From: Methanobacteriota archaeon | GTDB taxonomy: Archaea > Halobacteriota > Syntropharchaeia > JAUWIL01 | Length of the DNA stretch: 35,813 nt | Assembly: GCA_030605385.1 (NCBI GenBank) | Contig: JAUWIL010000003.1 | Location: forward strand, 1 to 35,813 | Direction: 5' to 3' | Shown: positions 816-26,008 of the stretch, piece after piece | Position numbering within the stretch: the first letter of the stretch is position 1 | How the letters are laid out: the number at the start of each line of letters is the position of its first letter | Program-made: the position numbers and the translations under genes | Notes under the pieces: generated by a model | What the model was told of the DNA's origin: nothing | Databases searched by the model: none | What the model saw: the letters and a program-made list of their open reading frames with translations, nothing else

Positions 816-1052
816 TCAGCTCTTATTATCAACAGTCTCGAGCTTGAACATGGTATTGAGACCTTTAAGTGTGAGATGGACTTTATCGCTGAGATTCAGG
901 ATCGCCTCAACACTAACCTTTTTGCTGCCCCAGTTGTAAACAAAATCATAGTTCCCTTTCACAGTCTTAAAACCCAGGGATAGGAGTCGCGAGTTTACCT
1001 CGCTTGGTGCCGCACCATCGCTGTTAAACCATACAACAAGATACGTTTTCAC
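816..1052 (-). CDS. Small hypothetical protein (78 aa)
   Basis: GTG start preceded by a GAGGTGG ribosome-binding site on the minus strand; normal globular composition. Confidence 0.75.
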   Translation of the reverse strand: MKTYLVVWFNSDGAAPSEVNSRLLSLGFKTVKGNYDFVYNWGSKKVSVEAILNLSDKVHLTLKGLNTMFKLETVDNKS

Positions 1053-1162
1053 CTTACCACCTCATTACGCTCCATTACTTTCACCTTACCACCTCATTAC
1101 GCTCCATTATGGATAGCCCCATTATGGATAGCCCCATTATGGATAGCCCCATTATGGATAGC
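1047..1162. repeat. 32-bp direct duplication containing an RBS and start codon, followed by a 15-bp tandem repeat CCATTATGGATAGCC x~4
   Basis: TTTCACCTTACCACCTCATTACGCTCCATTA at 1047 and 1079; 15-mers at 1104, 1119, 1134 and 1149. Confidence 0.92.
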
Positions 1163-2637: not shown

Positions 2638-3175
2638 ATGCTCAGAACCTGCGCTTCATTATATTTCTGCTCTTTTATGAACTGATTTATGAGTTGTTTG
2701 ATAATGGGTTGCTTGATAATATTACGCAAGGCTTTGTTGCGCAAGACTTATGAATTGCTTGGCAATTGCACAATTTTGTCAATAATTATTAATATCAGAG
2801 AACATCAGAGGGTGCGGCAAAGGGTATGTCTGTTTGCCTCTTAAGAAACTTTCGTTACCCAAATATACAATTTTCATGTACTATTTTGTACTGAAAGGAT
2901 ACTAAATGTTACATTTGGATGATAATTAATGCACGGAATAATACACAGCCTGCACAGCCATATGAAGATATAAAAACCAACCACCCACCACCCACCACAA
3001 ACCCATCTATCATCCCTACCACATGGTGCTGTGGTGCTGGATTTGGAAGTGTGTGGGACCACACCCAATCGGATGCACCTGCCTGTTGACAGATAATCCT
3101 TCACGCGGTGGTAGCCGCAGATAGAACCCCGTCACGACAATTCTTTTATAAGCGAAGCTATATATAAAGCGAAAT

Positions 3176-3622
3176 ATGGCTGATAAAAAAGTTGACAACC
3201 AAATCATGATAAAGAAGGTCATGGACCTTCTCAAGGACAAGGACAAGACGATACAGGCGATATATGAACAGATGGAAGAGCAGCTTGGAGAAGTACCGCT
3301 CGTCTCGCAGGTAATGTCCCGACGACCCGAGCAGTTCATACCGCATTCGATATACAGCTTTTTCACACTCAAAATGCCCAAGTCACTGAATGCAAAAACC
3401 GCAGAGTTGATAGCAATATCAGCGGCTGCTGCTGCGGGAAGCGAGCACTGTCTGCAGACGCATATAAACGCTGCACTGATTGCAGGCGCAAAAATGGACG
3501 AGATCTACGAAGCCATAATGATAAGCGCGCTAATGTCGCAGACGGCGGTATTGTCCAAGGCATTCAGAAAGCTTCTTGAAATGGAAGAGAGGCAGAGCAG
3601 CCGAGAGGAAAGAGAGCATTAA
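3176..3622 (+). CDS. Carboxymuconolactone decarboxylase / AhpD-like family protein
   Basis: SLNAKTAELIAISAAAAAGSEHCLQTHINAALIAGAKMDEIYEAI is the CMD-family core; the CxxC is reduced to SxxC. Confidence 0.85.
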   Translation: MADKKVDNQIMIKKVMDLLKDKDKTIQAIYEQMEEQLGEVPLVSQVMSRRPEQFIPHSIYSFFTLKMPKSLNAKTAELIAISAAAAAGSEHCLQTHINAALIAGAKMDEIYEAIMISALMSQTAVLSKAFRKLLEMEERQSSREEREH

Positions 3623-3692
3623 CAAGTCATACCATTTTGCTGTTCGGGTCCAACCGGGTTCAATACCATAAACTCTCGAGGAGAAAATACCC

Positions 3693-4943
3693 TTGGAACG
3701 CTATGACGTGATAATAGTGGGATCCGGGCCGGCAGGAACGTCAACAGCATTGAACATCAGAGCACTCGCTCCTGAGATATCTGACAGAACGCTTGTACTT
3801 GAGAAGGCATCACATCCAAGGGAGAGGGTATGTGCAGGTGCTGTAAGGGCAGGTGCAGTCAGCACGCTGGAAAGGCTCGGAATCAAACTCAGCATACCAT
3901 TCAGACAGGTCAACAGGATTAGGATAAGGTACGGGGCAGACATCCTCGACTTATGTGAGAATGATATCGGAAGGGTTGTTCGCAGGAGCGAATTTGATAC
4001 ACATCTTGCTGGAGAGGCACAGCGCGGGGGAGTGGAGCTGCATGAGAATGAAGTTCTTACGGGCATGGAGAGAAAAGATGGCGGGATGATTGTAAGCACT
4101 GCTCTGGGAACATATTGGTCAAGGGTGGTTGTAGGTGCTGACGGCACTCCAAGTCGTGTGAGAAAGCTCGCAGGCATAAGGGACCGGATGGTTGCAGCCA
4201 CAAACTACATGGTTGAGGTGCCTGCGGAGATGATATCCCCGGACTATTATGGGGAAAGTGCGGACATGCTCACTTTTGATTTTTCTCTCACTCAGAGGTG
4301 TCTGAGCGGATATATCTGGGAATTTCCATGCATTATAGACGGCAGGGATTACGTAAGCATCGGTCTATTCAATAATAACCTATTCAATACAGGCCCACCT
4401 TCATACAGGCGGAATCTCAGGCAGATTCTAATGAAGCAACTCAAGAGCAGAGGTCTGAATCCAGATGACTGCAGTGTCAAGTCGCACCCAACCCGTATGT
4501 TCCAGAAGTCAAACATCGTTTCGGCGCCGGGCGTGTTACTGGTCGGAGATGCTGCGGGCGTTGACAGTTTTGCCGGAGAAGGCATATATCATGCTATAAA
4601 GTATGGTCAACTAGCAGCGCACGAGGTTGTGAGAGCGTTCAGGACCGGGGACCTTTCATTCAGCCATTACATCAGATCGATATTGAATTCTGACTTTGGC
4701 GGTGAAATAGTTAGATTCGGAAGGGTTGCAAGAGCGCTCTATGGCAGCAGTATAAAGTTCAATTTCATACTGTCGCTTTTGTGGAACAGCCCCGACATCC
4801 AGCGCATGATGATACAGAATTACAAGGGTACTTACAAGATTAGAGGACACGTTATGAAAGTTGGATGGAAGATGGCGCACCACCTCATATTTGGGGATAA
4901 GGGAGTACCAATCAGGGGACCAATCGGAAAAGTACATGGATAG
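3693..4943 (+). CDS. Geranylgeranyl reductase family FAD-dependent oxidoreductase
   Basis: DVIIVGSGPAG Rossmann motif, CAGAV, RSEFDTHL, VVGADG, and LLVGDAAG..DSFAGEGI. Confidence 0.85.
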   Translation: MERYDVIIVGSGPAGTSTALNIRALAPEISDRTLVLEKASHPRERVCAGAVRAGAVSTLERLGIKLSIPFRQVNRIRIRYGADILDLCENDIGRVVRRSEFDTHLAGEAQRGGVELHENEVLTGMERKDGGMIVSTALGTYWSRVVVGADGTPSRVRKLAGIRDRMVAATNYMVEVPAEMISPDYYGESADMLTFDFSLTQRCLSGYIWEFPCIIDGRDYVSIGLFNNNLFNTGPPSYRRNLRQILMKQLKSRGLNPDDCSVKSHPTRMFQKSNIVSAPGVLLVGDAAGVDSFAGEGIYHAIKYGQLAAHEVVRAFRTGDLSFSHYIRSILNSDFGGEIVRFGRVARALYGSSIKFNFILSLLWNSPDIQRMMIQNYKGTYKIRGHVMKVGWKMAHHLIFGDKGVPIRGPIGKVHG

Positions 4944-4975
4944 GAGTTATTGATAGGAGTTATTGATAGGAGTTA
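4939..4975. repeat. 13-bp tandem repeat GATAGGAGTTATT x~3, overlapping the stop codon
   Basis: Units at 4939, 4952 and 4965 (partial). Confidence 0.85.
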
Positions 4976-5076
4976 AATCACAGCCTGTACTTGTGAATAT
5001 TGTTCTCCCTGAAACGGCTCTAATTAAAGCCTCTGCTTAAAGCTGTTTTTATTCAACTCCCACCCCCCGGTATAAA

Positions 5077-5829
5077 TCACATAAGCACAATTTTCATGGC
5101 GGTGAATAGTACGTCTCCGCACGTTACTGCGAGGAGGAATCCTGCTGTTATGGACATCATGAACGGCATTATTGGTGTGACCCATACCATGGCATCATCG
5201 CCTGCTGCGCTTCTCAGGTTATTGAGCACTTCATCATCAATTTCAATTCCTCTTAGTTTTAAGGCTCGTGTGAAACCTCCGTTGTTCGGCTCGTAGGTCT
5301 CTATCAGTTTGAGATTTTTACCTCCTACATCTTTTACATGTGCCTTGTAGCCAATGGCTATCAGCGGCAGACTCCTTCTCACCTCACCGTAGTCAAGTTT
5401 TGCAAGGTTATAAGCGATGAACGAGATTGGCGCAATCAAGGTAATCACGGCAGCATTGGCTAACACACTGAACGGAAACGGGTTGGCACCTGGAATGCCA
5501 AGGAGGGGCAGATAATAGCCTCCAGCGTATAACTCCGGAAACATCGGAAGCACGACAGAGATGGCTATAATCGATTTCGCATCTGCCCCACCAAATGCCC
5601 TGATTCTGAAAAGCAGGTACACTACGGCATATATGAAGGCGGTAGCCAGCACAAGGCGCAGCAGGAACATATAATCGCCTCTAAGCAGCTCGTATAACGC
5701 GAGCGCAGCGCCGACGACAATCATTACGAGCCACACTCTGTTGGAGACGCGCCTGGTGCGCAGGTCAGTGTAACATGCATATGCAAGGAACGGCAGGCAT
5801 ACCAGCACTCGAAGGATTTCCAGCTCCAT
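5077..5829 (-). CDS. Prepilin/prearchaellin peptidase (A24, FlaK/PibD type)
   Basis: YTDLRTRRVSNRVW (first Asp), FGGADAK (GxGD-like second Asp) and C-terminal VWVTPIMPFM. Start set at ATG 5829 (MELEIL). Confidence 0.9.
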   Translation of the reverse strand: MELEILRVLVCLPFLAYACYTDLRTRRVSNRVWLVMIVVGAALALYELLRGDYMFLLRLVLATAFIYAVVYLLFRIRAFGGADAKSIIAISVVLPMFPELYAGGYYLPLLGIPGANPFPFSVLANAAVITLIAPISFIAYNLAKLDYGEVRRSLPLIAIGYKAHVKDVGGKNLKLIETYEPNNGGFTRALKLRGIEIDDEVLNNLRSAAGDDAMVWVTPIMPFMMSITAGFLLAVTCGDVLFTAMKIVLM

Positions 5830-8036: not shown

Positions 8037-8130
8037 CGGCACTTTATTAGCATTTAACAGAGGGCATTTGACAGGATCAATAAGATTAATTTGACAGGGC
8101 CATAAAATCAGGTTGAGTCAGGAAGCCATA

Positions 8131-8185
8131 CCCACACCTATACCCATACCTATGCCCACACCTATACCCATACCTATGCCCACAC
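8131..8185. repeat. 24-bp tandem repeat CCCACACCTATACCCATACCTATG x2.3
   Basis: Units at 8131, 8155 and 8179 (partial); internal 12-bp substructure. Confidence 0.88.
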
Positions 8186-16075: not shown

Positions 16076-16690
16076 ATGAAGAAAAAGCAACTTGAGATGC
16101 AGCTTGAGAAAATAAAGGGATTTAAAACCCCATCTCCGAGGCTGGAACAGTACGTCACACCTGCGCCGGTAGCCGCGGAACTCCTTCATATGGCGTATAT
16201 GAGGGGGGATATAGAGGGCAGAGTGGTGTATGACCTTGGGTGCGGCACAGGGACACTTGCGATAGGCGCAAAACTGCTTGAAGCCTCTGAGGTGGTGGGA
16301 TTCGACATTGATGCGGAGGCTGTTGAAGTGGCAGAACAGAACTCCCGACTCTTCGGCACGGATGTAAGGTTCATACAATCGGATATAAACGGCGTGCAGG
16401 GAAATGCTGATACCGCGGTCATGAATCCCCCGTTCGGGGCGCAAAATCCTGGGGCAGACAGGCCCTTTATATCTAAAGCTCTCCAGATAGCGCCAGTAGT
16501 ATACTCACTTCACAATGCGGGTAGTGAAGATTTTATCAAAAGGTTTATAGAGCCAAACATCACAAAGGAGCGATGCCCCATAAGCTTTCCTATAAAGTGG
16601 ACTTTTGATTTTCACACTCAGGAAGTGAGGGAAGTGGATGTAGATTTATATATGATGAAGAGAAGAGAAAGGGGAGAAAGAGAGCGATAA
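16076..16690 (+). CDS. METTL5-family N6-adenine RNA methyltransferase
   Basis: LEQYVTP, DLGCGTGTLAIGA, MNPPFG and YSLH; sits in the familiar dph2-methyltransferase-csl4-rpoL neighbourhood. Confidence 0.92.
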   Translation: MKKKQLEMQLEKIKGFKTPSPRLEQYVTPAPVAAELLHMAYMRGDIEGRVVYDLGCGTGTLAIGAKLLEASEVVGFDIDAEAVEVAEQNSRLFGTDVRFIQSDINGVQGNADTAVMNPPFGAQNPGADRPFISKALQIAPVVYSLHNAGSEDFIKRFIEPNITKERCPISFPIKWTFDFHTQEVREVDVDLYMMKRRERGERER

Positions 16691-16750
16691 GTTATAGGGT
16701 TTATATATTGTTGCTAAACAGTGTTGTTGTGTTGTTTAAACAGTTAATGG

Positions 16751-17067
16751 ATGTTTATGGAACTTTGTTCCATAACCGTATGGAGGTGGAGCTTCCATAC
16801 ATGTTTGCGGAACAAAGTTCCGCAACAGTCTAAAAGTTCCACTTTTAGACATGTTTGCAAAAACGTAGTTTTTGCAACCGTATAAAATCAGGAGATTTTA
16901 TACATGTTTACAGAGCAGGGCTCTGTAACCGTATGAAATGCTTTGCATTTCAGACATGTTTGAAAAACCTACGGTTTTTCAACCGTCTAAAACGCAAAGC
17001 GTTTTAGACATGTTTATGGAACGTAGTTCCATAACCGTATGAAAAGCGGAGCTTTTCAGACATGTTT
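16751..17067. repeat. Array of 6 units (50-54 bp), each ATGT + hairpin A + CC/CA + hairpin B
   Basis: Units start at 16751, 16801, 16851, 16904, 16956 and 17010, with a final ATGTTT at 17062; 12 hairpins with 9-11 bp stems and 3-4 nt loops. Confidence 0.95.
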
Positions 17068-17202
17068 AAAACGGGTAATGGGCTTTGAAAACTCAGAACT
17101 GACATAAACCGACATAAACCGACATATATTCTGCAGAAACTAGTGAACGCAGAGCGTTCACAAGACTTTGTATTCGACAAGTAATCAGGAAGTGTTTTTT
17201 TG

Positions 17203-17790
17203 ATGGGCGATGAGATAGGCAGTAAAGTAGAAGAAGGTAGCTTTGTAACTCCAGGGGGCTTTATTGGGACATCGGAGGAGTTTCTGACAGGCACCGGAAC
17301 ATATGAGGAGAAAGGGAAAGTATACGCGTCGACCACAGGGATATTGAACATAAATACTAAAGAACGCATAGTCAGTGTTAAACCCACAGTGAAGACCCCG
17401 CCAATACCCAAAGTGGGGGATATAGTGGTTGGTAGGGTGCTTGATATCAAAGGCTCCATGGTATTTGTGGATGTGGGAAGGATAAAAGGCTCCGAAGACA
17501 GAGAGATAGCCGCTTCAGAGCAGGGAGTTATACACGTATCGAACGTTAAGGAAGCATATGTATCTGAACTGAGCGATGAATTCGGTTATATGGATATTAT
17601 TAAGGCGAAAGTTATTGATGCCAAGGCCATGAGACTCAGCACCTCTGCAAAGGACTTGGGAGTTATAAAGGCAATATGCTCCAGATGTAAAGTGGGCATG
17701 AAGAGGAAGAACGACCGCCTTGAGTGCCCCAACTGCGGAAGAATAGAAATGAGAAAGATCTCAGAGGACTATGGTATGGGAATAATTTAG
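17203..17790 (+). CDS. csl4: Exosome complex component Csl4
   Basis: VTPG...EEF..G.GTYE, S1 domain (PKVGDIVVGRV, IHVSNV), DLGVIKAICSRC...CPNCG zinc ribbon and RKIS. Confidence 0.95.
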   Translation: MGDEIGSKVEEGSFVTPGGFIGTSEEFLTGTGTYEEKGKVYASTTGILNINTKERIVSVKPTVKTPPIPKVGDIVVGRVLDIKGSMVFVDVGRIKGSEDREIAASEQGVIHVSNVKEAYVSELSDEFGYMDIIKAKVIDAKAMRLSTSAKDLGVIKAICSRCKVGMKRKNDRLECPNCGRIEMRKISEDYGMGII

Positions 17791-17876: not shown

Positions 17877-18167
17877 GTGACACTCTTGGAGATAAATATA
17901 CTGGAAAAGTCGGATAAGGAGATAAAGGTAGAGGTAGTTGGGGAGGACCATACATTTATGAACGCCCTAAAGGCCGCACTCCTCGAGGACAAGCGCGTCA
18001 ATGTTGCAACATACGATATTGAATTTCCTACAATTAGTGACCCCGTACTTCACGTAATGACAACGAGCAAACCGATCCCAATTCTAAAGGCTGCGGCGAA
18101 GCGACTGATCAAACAGTGCGACAAATTCTCTGATAAATTCGGCAAGAGTATTGAGGAAAAGCAGTAA
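17877..18167 (+). CDS. rpoL: DNA-directed RNA polymerase subunit L (Rpo11)
   Basis: GEDHTFMNALK motif; immediately downstream of csl4. Confidence 0.93.
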   Translation: MTLLEINILEKSDKEIKVEVVGEDHTFMNALKAALLEDKRVNVATYDIEFPTISDPVLHVMTTSKPIPILKAAAKRLIKQCDKFSDKFGKSIEEKQ

Positions 18168-18223: not shown

Positions 18224-18335
18224 GTGTTTGCAAAATCGAAGATTTTGCAACAGTATAAAAACCGAAGGTTTTCAGACATGTTTGTAGAACCACGTTCTAC
18301 AACCGTCTAAAACACGCAGTGTTTTAAACATGTTT
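18224..18335. repeat. Second alternating-hairpin array of the same family, 2 units
   Basis: GTGT-TTGCAAAATC gaa GATTTTGCAA-CA-GTATAAAAACC gaa GGTTTTCAGAC-ATGT-TTGTAGAAC cac GTTCTACAA-CC-GTCTAAAACAC gca GTGTTTTAAAC-ATGTTT. Confidence 0.93.
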
Positions 18336-22406: not shown

Positions 22407-22538
22407 AAGTCTTGCGAACCAAAAGTTCGCGGGACAACCAAATGCCATGCATTTGTTAAGTCTTGCGGAGCAAAGCTCCGCGGGACAGACGGACTACTGT
22501 CCGTCAAGTCTCGCAAAAACTTCGTTTTTGCAAGACTT
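22407..22538. repeat. Third alternating-hairpin array with a different scaffold (AAGTCTYGC...GCRRGAC)
   Basis: Hairpins at 22409-22435, 22436-22457, 22460-22486, 22488-22505 and 22508-22536; period about 50 bp. Confidence 0.88.
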
Positions 22539-25919: not shown

Positions 25920-26008
25920 TCACCAATAACCATTTCACCAATAGCCACCTCACCAATAGCCACCTCACCAATAGCCACCTCACCAATAGCCACCTCACCA
26001 ATAGCCAC
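25920..26008. repeat. 15-bp tandem repeat TCACCAATAGCCACC x6
   Basis: Units at 25920 (variant), 25935, 25950, 25965, 25980 and 25995; ends about 21 bp before the next ATG. Confidence 0.95.

Follow-up and report, generated by a model that had tools for sequence, protein, structure and literature searches.

The REP/BIME elements of bacteria (repetitive extragenic palindromic sequences and bacterial interspersed mosaic elements) are mobilized by RAYT, a Y1 HUH transposase. Insertion sequences (IS) of the IS200/IS605 type end in subterminal hairpins on one strand and have no long terminal inverted repeats, and the PATEs of Haloquadratum are miniature elements derived from them; the attC sites of integrons, recognized as folded single strands, combine a conserved structure with a variable sequence, stand in head-to-tail arrays and are crossed over beside a GTT. 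Published accounts describe REP/BIME as short hairpin repeats in hundreds of copies, which form extragenic mosaic arrays, have compensated stems and are lineage-specific (PMC2817692; PMC3733652), and define the REP by a GTAG or CGTC tetranucleotide at the foot of the hairpin (PMC3733652). The Rickettsia palindromic elements (RPE), of about 150 bp, are described as encoding a conserved peptide and lying in-frame in housekeeping genes (PMC10969869), and the mitochondrial double-hairpin elements or RHE of fungi and sponges as tiny units in spacers and some genes, whose presence varies and for which the account consulted names no enzyme and, for the Allomyces elements, no flanking duplication (PMC2800124). 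Much work has been done on small hairpin repeats in these bacterial (REP/BIME, RPE) and organellar settings. For archaea, the literature that we searched offers a 2025 survey of generic intergenic palindromes in six genomes (PMC12306157) and a review that lists MITEs, or transposable elements of miniature size with inverted repeats (PMC10969869), and describes no archaeal family with the anatomy reported below, with the proviso that archaeal REP lists in supplementary files could escape such a search. Here we analyze a stretch of 35,813 nucleotides from a Methanobacteriota archaeon (contig JAUWIL010000003.1; hereinafter the window), which carries an array of hairpins that is very probably made up of six copies of a small (50–54 nt), non-coding and non-autonomous mobile DNA element, present in several hundred copies in this archaeal genome. 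As contig C155, the window belongs to a metagenome-assembled genome (MAG G000) of 1.87 Mb in 168 contigs, 84.8% complete and with a G+C content of 46.7%.

The array occupies positions 16751–17064 on the + strand and resolves, by direct reading and a pattern parse, into six head-to-tail double-hairpin units with 12 hairpins in all, namely 16752–16801, 16802–16851, 16852–16904, 16905–16956, 16957–17010 and 17011–17062, followed by a closing TG at 17063–17064. Each unit, 50–54 nt long, obeys the formula TGTTT-[hairpin A, base TT..AA]-AAC(C/A)GT-[hairpin B, base GT(A/C)T..A(G/T)AC]-A, after which a TG opens the next unit, and the palindromic hexamer ACATGT can be read directly at each unit junction. 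Hairpin A begins 1–3 nt inside the 5′ junction of the unit and hairpin B stops 1–3 nt short of the 3′ junction, both on the + strand, and the outer ends, TGT(T)T...A(G)ACA, show an inverted match of 3–5 nt only. A putative seventh unit, degenerate or truncated, appears on direct reading to start at 17065–17087 (+ strand; TTTAAAAC...) and is followed by a TG at 17088. All 12 hairpins are predicted to fold on either strand, and none of 100 shuffles folded as well as the array, whether as RNA (z-scores of −13.6 for the + strand and −15.8 for the − strand) or as DNA (−16.5 and −17.3, respectively). A covariance model of the unit, R1, has three of the window units among its listed matches (16799–16854, 16902–16959 and 17008–17065; E-value about 1e-15). 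The order of the units is that of the MAG contig, since no Logan contig from the four public runs used below covers the entire array, and the order in long arrays generally comes from the short-read MAG. A preliminary description of this DNA had already recognized the six double-hairpin units with fixed linkers and variable, compensated stems, and its parse was confirmed, with the loops exactly as it listed them. Its statement that the stems stay paired held for the 12 hairpins and has to be qualified for the third base pair of hairpin B, which is often an A·G mismatch (185 of 425 modules genome-wide). A second qualification concerns orientation: A and B are alike in having purine-rich 5′ arms and GNA or AAA loops on one strand, which means that B is no inverted copy of A, and both share one polarity rather than alternating in the manner of REPs.

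Scanning the MAG with a strict pattern for full units bounded by ACATGT retrieved 99 copies (39 on the + strand, 60 on the − strand), as against 0 for a backwards-read control. A looser scan for single modules recovered 831 (406 A and 425 B hairpins; reversed-genome control: 23), which group into about 270 arrays of 1–13 modules and amount to 23.8 kb or 1.27% of the genome, with one array per ~7 kb; the further copies foreseen in the preliminary description are thus abundant. The copies are related to each other, and counts of them are therefore not independent trials. Model R1 gave at least 154 matches in the MAG (150 of about 1991 candidates scored). As many as 34 of the 336 contig ends (about 10%) fall within arrays. 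With genes called crudely as longest open reading frames (ORFs), 191 of the 270 arrays overlap no called ORF by more than 30 nt, and the orientation of arrays relative to their flanking genes shows no bias (++ 31, −− 22, convergent +− 18, divergent −+ 17). Neighboring arrays share their orientation in 49 pairs as against 28 (p=0.02), which faintly suggests a bias by region, perhaps linked to replication. Perfect hairpins in general (stem of at least 8, loop of 3–5) number 1198 distinct instances in the MAG after merging of overlapping calls, compared with about 88 before merging in a shuffled genome, which makes the latter an upper bound; 669 lie inside arrays of the main family and 510 outside, many of these in a second hairpin family with other linkers. 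The window also holds, at 22414–22531, an array of five hairpins whose modules belong to another family and whose linkers include AAGTCT(T/C)GCG...CGCGGGAC / GCAAGAC, and arrays in which the main and the second hairpin families are interleaved occur, for example, on contigs C134 and C44.

What is conserved in the unit is its structure. In an alignment of 61 distinct units of the MAG, comprising 1219 base-pair cells, 94.9% of the cells are paired; column shuffles reach 79.2%, and sliding the partners by 1–3 columns leaves no more than 46.7%. Thirteen of the 20 base pairs vary on both sides, and double-changed cells number 256 versus 82 ± 10.7 in shuffles, none of 500 of which attained 256; one-sided (G·U) changes account for merely 5 of the 1219 cells. 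Stem variants are separated chiefly by transitions, and the invariant parts are those that flank the stems: ACATGTTT, AAC(C/A)GT and A(G/T)AC. Operators for a dimeric protein were considered and rejected, since pairing is maintained although the sequence changes. The hairpins are mostly closed by a C-G pair, and their + strand loops are mostly GNA or AAA (319 GNA versus 75 of the complementary TNC), with 106 G·T versus 66 A·C mismatches in the stems; C-G-closed GNA triloops have been described as exceptionally stable DNA mini-hairpins (PMC13037366; PMC3201870). Arm purine content was also tried for orienting the hairpins and failed as a classifier. Inversion of modules at their loops, likewise anticipated in the preliminary description, is seen in otherwise near-identical units of contigs C51 and C96, of which one has an AAA and the other a TTT loop.

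The units are inserted DNA, a conclusion that draws on four mutually independent lines of evidence: an empty orthologous site, a paralogous series of empty and filled sites, in-frame copies in genes and the lack of slippage. The array of the window lies in the spacer between a gene for a small class I methyltransferase (MTS/PrmA-like; 16076–16690, + strand) and one for the exosome subunit Csl4 (ECR1_N, EXOSC1; 17200–17790, + strand), both identified by Pfam search. Contigs of four public metagenome runs were aligned to 16076–17790, and the corresponding spacer of a ~96%-identical relative from run X5, which belongs to a separate study, proved to be without the array, as predicted in the preliminary description. 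This X5 contig (record 17, 558 nt) matches 16363–16697 with 13 differences and resumes at 17088–17306, thereby skipping 390 nt; as it carries at the junction 18 letters that resemble 16698–16715, the segment absent from the relative is 16716–17087 (+ strand), that is, 372 nt consisting of the array with 35 nt to its left and 23 nt to its right. The flanks 16716–16750 and 17065–17087 have no second copy in the MAG by BLAST. The empty site is represented by one contig, at a depth of 4, from one run. Many unit-like contigs occur in runs X5 and X6, and the family is accordingly present in those communities.

The paralogous series comes from a second repeat of ~120 nt, which consists of inverted arms, CCACCAGT/ACTGGTGG, and an extra internal hairpin (e.g., G000:C26 3085–3258 on the − strand, and ~26 other loci), and whose copies include unit-free ones, ones with anything from a single unit to many at the one TG, and deletion variants. 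Among its 27 left arms, 13 are without units and 14 are directly continued by units. Four of the 13 unit-free copies display the plain empty junction, which reads GTGGTTA on contigs C30, C74 and C139 (in the context ...gactg GTGGTTA ggactgg...) and AGGGTTA on C84. Three copies contain exactly one unit, as in gactgG[TG]TTT...ACA[TG]GTTAgg, which amounts to an insertion of 52 nt bounded by TG on either side, and the remaining filled copies have 1.5, 2 or more units; the first units of the 14 filled copies are of nine different kinds. The target TG sits between the two inverted arms of the second repeat. Units are thus inserted precisely, with a TG dinucleotide at either junction. A target-site logo built from 104 array ends drew its signal mostly from degenerate neighboring units and is not used here as evidence.

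Units also reside in-frame inside genes. By the crude ORF call, units overlap long ORFs in 25 instances, and nine of the 11 that we examined have hosts supported by Pfam. For instance, a PMT_2 glycosyltransferase on contig C45 has a 17-amino-acid insert that corresponds to a clean gap in its neighboring, 52.6%-identical paralogue. The tryptophan-biosynthesis protein TrpC (C51) carries an insert of 71 amino acids, encoded by eight hairpins, and the small subunit of the DNA polymerase PolD (C24) one of 47; both are absent in five of five aligned orthologues from other families of the class, and the two insert segments matched nothing except other hairpin arrays of the same MAG. The six further Pfam-supported hosts are a second PMT_2 protein, a VCA0040-like protein, two hydrolases, MetW and a GH15 protein. 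All 11 examined gene copies have unit ends of the form xTGTTT...ACATGx, units in coding sequences occur on either strand, and a typical unit is free of stops in four of its six frames on direct reading. Besides its hairpin insert, the PolD small subunit (G000:C24:1919–3868) contains at residues ~100–210 a proline-rich low-complexity segment of ~110 residues, which is absent from the five orthologues. Units have hence entered intergenic DNA, the loop of an inverted-repeat element of a different kind, the ends of units already in place, and reading frames where the length of the insert keeps the frame.

Where several units lie together, they form head-to-tail stacks of unlike units: 140 arrays run A..B as against 5 that run B..A, and the A stems of neighboring units are identical in 3.4% of 206 pairs versus 7.4% by random expectation, the B stems in 1.6% of 182 pairs versus 5.9%, a deficit to which the collapse of identical neighbors in assembly could contribute. 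Because neighboring units differ, arrays grow by repeated insertion and not by slippage; a tandem slippage array was accordingly rejected, identical stems being shared by neighbors less often than expected at random. We also rejected a CRISPR array, in view of conserved parts that are linkers of 4–8 nt, variable parts that are palindromes, and ~270 loci, and an origin-of-replication repeat was considered and rejected. The preliminary description had come to the same view on CRISPR and slippage, and its concept of a modular, structure-constrained element whose modules are added or recombined is upheld. The 330 units show 249 distinct A+B combinations, with only a weak association between A and B types. 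Blocks of two to four units are common to different loci; units 1–4 of the window, for example, match C26:4248–4457 at 85.8%, and units 1–2 match a segment of C160 at 94.5%.

The family is lineage-specific. Of the genomes compared, only MAG G000 belongs to its taxonomic family and genus, the strict unit pattern is absent in 59 of 60 relatives, and model R1 found no match in 77 of 78 other genomes of the class. The exception is G053, a MAG of the Methanophagales (ANME-1), in which all seven R1 matches are on the 18.3-kb contig C149: the terminal 3,090 nt of this contig (15207–18294), arrays included, are 99.84% identical to G000:C19:1-3090, and its remaining 15 kb have no counterpart in G000, for which reason we read it as a chimeric or mis-binned contig or as a recent transfer. 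A pattern scan of one genome per species across 185,579 species matched only this G053 contig, and a scan of viral contigs gave 0 matches; a metagenome-wide scan returned five stretches, none of which is a hairpin unit on reading, and which we take as chance matches. The host MAG encodes two MCR alpha subunits (G000:C123:12208–12582 and G000:C60:3750–4124), nine acyl-CoA dehydrogenase paralogues and seven thiolase paralogues, suggesting an alkane- or methane-oxidizing archaeon; the class includes ANME-1.

As for a mechanism, one unit is 5′-(TG)TTT-hairpin A-AAC(C/A)GT-hairpin B-ACA(TG)-3′, with both hairpins on the same strand. Its 3′ end, ACA|TG, which falls in the 4-nt unpaired linker between hairpins, would recreate the target, and insertions would then pile up into arrays. 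Y1 transposases and integron integrases read their sites by unpaired linkers and stem bases, and conserved unpaired linkers and stem bases combined with free inner stems would fit recognition by structure-reading enzymes of this single-strand kind. By analogy with IS200/IS605, REP and integron attC, the mobile or recognized form may be single-stranded hairpin DNA, and a single-stranded or extruded substrate is also suggested because the target in the second repeat likewise lies between paired arms. The bias of GNA loops to one strand might reflect a strand-specific intermediate, a claim that rests on the loop and mismatch counts of non-independent copies because both strands fold equally stably. 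A putative enzyme would act in trans. The stems could be kept perfect either by mobilization of well-folded copies only or by template switching within a hairpin (quasipalindrome correction), described as an established error of replication by which imperfect inverted repeats become perfect (PMC7202029); switching from arm to arm would flip the loops too, and this process would fit the data because half-changed pairs are nearly absent and loops flip (C51 versus C96). At the far end of this line of thought is a hitherto undescribed class of self-stacking hairpin elements that insert at TG in unpaired DNA, are mobilized by a non-Y1 enzyme or, without any transposase of their own, by host replication or repair, owe their stem diversity to template switching and tolerate, or even make use of, a place in-frame within essential genes like that for the PolD small subunit, which would make this the first system of the REP/BIME type to be worked out for an archaeon; we put this forward tentatively, as possible and on balance doubtful.

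Several observations weigh against a mobile element of this kind. Relative to the X5 contig, the insert in the window has no clean TG-to-TG junction and brings 35 and 23 extra unique nucleotides with it. For the TG, a 2-bp duplication, a crossover core that is shared and a target that is adjacent would each fit the data; TG at both junctions would also fit an insertion of the IS200/IS605 type 3′ of ..TG by an element ending in ..TG. In nearest-neighbor DNA folding the two strands of the array are predicted to be equally stable (−92.9 versus −94.5 kcal/mol), and the units may be of benefit to the host. Further, the HUH/Y1 or TnpB gene whose proximity the preliminary description had raised as a question did not materialize: in the 84.8%-complete MAG there were 0 matches to the Y1 transposase profile PF01797 (for which the control gave matches in 6 of 14 genomes), to the TnpB profiles PF01385 and PF07282, and to the IS110 profile PF01548. 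Nor was a transposase found among nine multi-copy protein families examined in the MAG, of which eight are metabolic or transport families (for instance acyl-CoA dehydrogenase, thiolase, HdrA-like and AFOR), the ninth being a glucodextranase/Ig-like-domain protein, and the 10 ORFs examined between neighboring arrays, some of them housekeeping genes (EPSP synthase, Spt5 and thymidylate kinase), belong to no transposase or nuclease family. Profile searches did recover one DDE_Tnp_1 match, a fragment at a contig end; one weak match to Phage_integrase, the tyrosine recombinase family (E=8.9e-4); and, as the sole Resolvase match of the MAG, a serine recombinase with Resolvase and Recombinase domains (G000:C54:10898–11740). 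After the latter come two ORFs in tandem, each with HNH and Recombinase domains, and then a fourth HNH copy, which is truncated and ends at an array of 12 hairpins (the cluster, from the Pfam search, spans 2899–5388 of segment G000:C54:8000–16000). The tandem architecture is odd, but the adjacency to the array is not significant because arrays occur about every 7 kb. Absence of an enzyme gene is not shown by these searches, as IS genes are easily lost from a short-read MAG of 168 contigs.

The C54 cluster bears on a different explanation, namely that units or multi-unit blocks integrate as double-stranded DNA through a site-specific recombinase (of the serine class, or else of the IS607/IS110 type) with TG as a 2-bp core at both junctions. 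This we hold to be unlikely. The recombinase gene with its fourth, truncated HNH copy ending at the 12-hairpin array would be its candidate agent, and both the TG at either junction and the palindromic ACATGT between units are what it would lead one to expect; yet the TG is off-center in ACATGT, a double-stranded circle of 52 bp would be too small as a recombination substrate, an array beside the C54 gene is expected by chance at one per ~7 kb, and IS110 and TnpB genes were not found in the MAG. Variable stems of conserved structure together with the polarity bias of the loops point instead to a folded single strand.

Considerably less probable still is that the hairpins are retained mainly for a host role (ending or attenuating transcription, shielding mRNA 3′ ends, or providing sites for chromatin or topology proteins), with their spread as a secondary matter. 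Such roles are described for bacterial REP/BIME (PMC3733652; PMC2817692), the TTT after each B hairpin and the intergenic position of most arrays (191 of 270 by the crude ORF calls) would suit them, and against this stand the unbiased orientation of the arrays (17 divergent versus 18 convergent), the units within coding sequences on either strand, the absence of the family from 77 other genomes of the class, and the locus that is empty in a 96%-identical relative and so dispensable there. We give very little credence to the suggestion, made as an alternative in the preliminary description, that the array might be a precursor of small structured RNAs cut at its fixed linkers, by analogy with CRISPR processing. 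Regular units of ~52 nt, conserved linkers and a strong predicted structure are compatible with it; nevertheless, the ~270 loci are unbiased in orientation relative to genes, units appear to be read in-frame within proteins and lie in genes on both strands, no leader or recurrent associated gene was found beside the arrays, and compensated stems with 5 of 1219 G·U intermediates are atypical of drift at the RNA level. Rfam gave 0 matches at the gathering score over the entire window, and at E≤1 over 16600–17200 its best sub-threshold scores were 13–21 bits versus gathering scores of 44–195, i.e., chance matches to hairpins; a search of the window for tRNA and tmRNA found none.

Within the window, the mobile double-hairpin family is represented by a second array at 18224–18332 (+ strand), which the module scan, the parse and R1 resolve into two units with four hairpins, and which lies between the gene for RNA polymerase subunit L (17877–18167) and the next ORF. 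The csl4 and rpoL genes are in consequence flanked on both sides by arrays of equal orientation. Immediately upstream of csl4, the 10-mer AACCGACATA is repeated three times (17097–17126), where the X5 relative is 20 nt shorter, i.e., has one copy. Other short perfect tandem repeats in the window (1047–1162, 8128–8185, 25920–26008 and others) include a 32-mer ×2, a 15-mer ×3.9, a 24-mer ×2.3 and a 15-mer ×5.9.

The value of this family lies in the clean internal evidence that it provides: a series of empty, single-unit and multi-unit states of one site, defined junctions, growth by insertion and in-frame colonization of essential genes. Should an enzyme be found, hairpin-directed transposition would gain an archaeal branch; should none be found, the family would point to an enzyme-free spread of palindromes. 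In more practical terms, repeats at ~10% of contig ends and extra peptides in annotated proteins are of consequence when genomes of seep archaea are assembled and annotated.

Comparison with the systems introduced at the outset places the element among them without merging it with any. Like integron attC sites as these are generally understood, it might depend on recognition of a folded strand, and it shows variable sequence and head-to-tail arrays; unlike them, it has no cassettes between its hairpins and no integron integrase, the tyrosine recombinase match being weak (E=8.9e-4), and its junction arithmetic fits TG and not G|TT. With miniature elements derived from IS200/IS605, such as the PATEs, it shares subterminal hairpins at both ends on one strand, the lack of long terminal inverted repeats and an archaeal host, whereas its unit is far shorter with almost no spacer from hairpin to end, TG occurs at both junctions instead of a target tetranucleotide on one side, and TnpA and TnpB were not found in the MAG. 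The mitochondrial double-hairpin elements and RHE resemble it in consisting of one or two hairpins scattered over spacers and genes and varying between close relatives, but they belong to organelle genomes, and the account cited above does not describe head-to-tail stacking for them. As in RPE, palindromic repeats lie in-frame in unrelated housekeeping genes and leave the frame open (here in nine Pfam-supported hosts); the archaeal units differ in being 50–54 nt long, in lacking the conserved peptide of the RPE, in using several frames and both strands, and in forming mostly intergenic tandem stacks. The resemblance to MITEs lies in a small, non-coding, multi-copy element with a precise 52-nt insertion and TG on either side, be this a true duplication or not, which is ambiguous; the inverted ends are, however, only 3–5 nt, and neither a parent IS nor a multi-copy transposase was found in the MAG, its one DDE match being a fragment. 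Closest are the REP/BIME elements, with which the family has in common short hairpin units in more than 100 copies, a mostly extragenic location, mosaic clusters, fixed short linkers and compensated stems. The archaeal REP/BIME analogue envisaged in the preliminary description consequently stands as to the way in which the element works and falls as to its marks of identity: no GTAG or CGTC tag is found at the foot of the stems, the hairpins are of one polarity and head to tail whereas REPs alternate in BIMEs, TG is present at both junctions, units are often in-frame in genes, and no RAYT gene was found in the 84.8%-complete MAG. It is thus a new, lineage-specific archaeal element, which behaves like REP/BIME or a MITE and fails REP membership.

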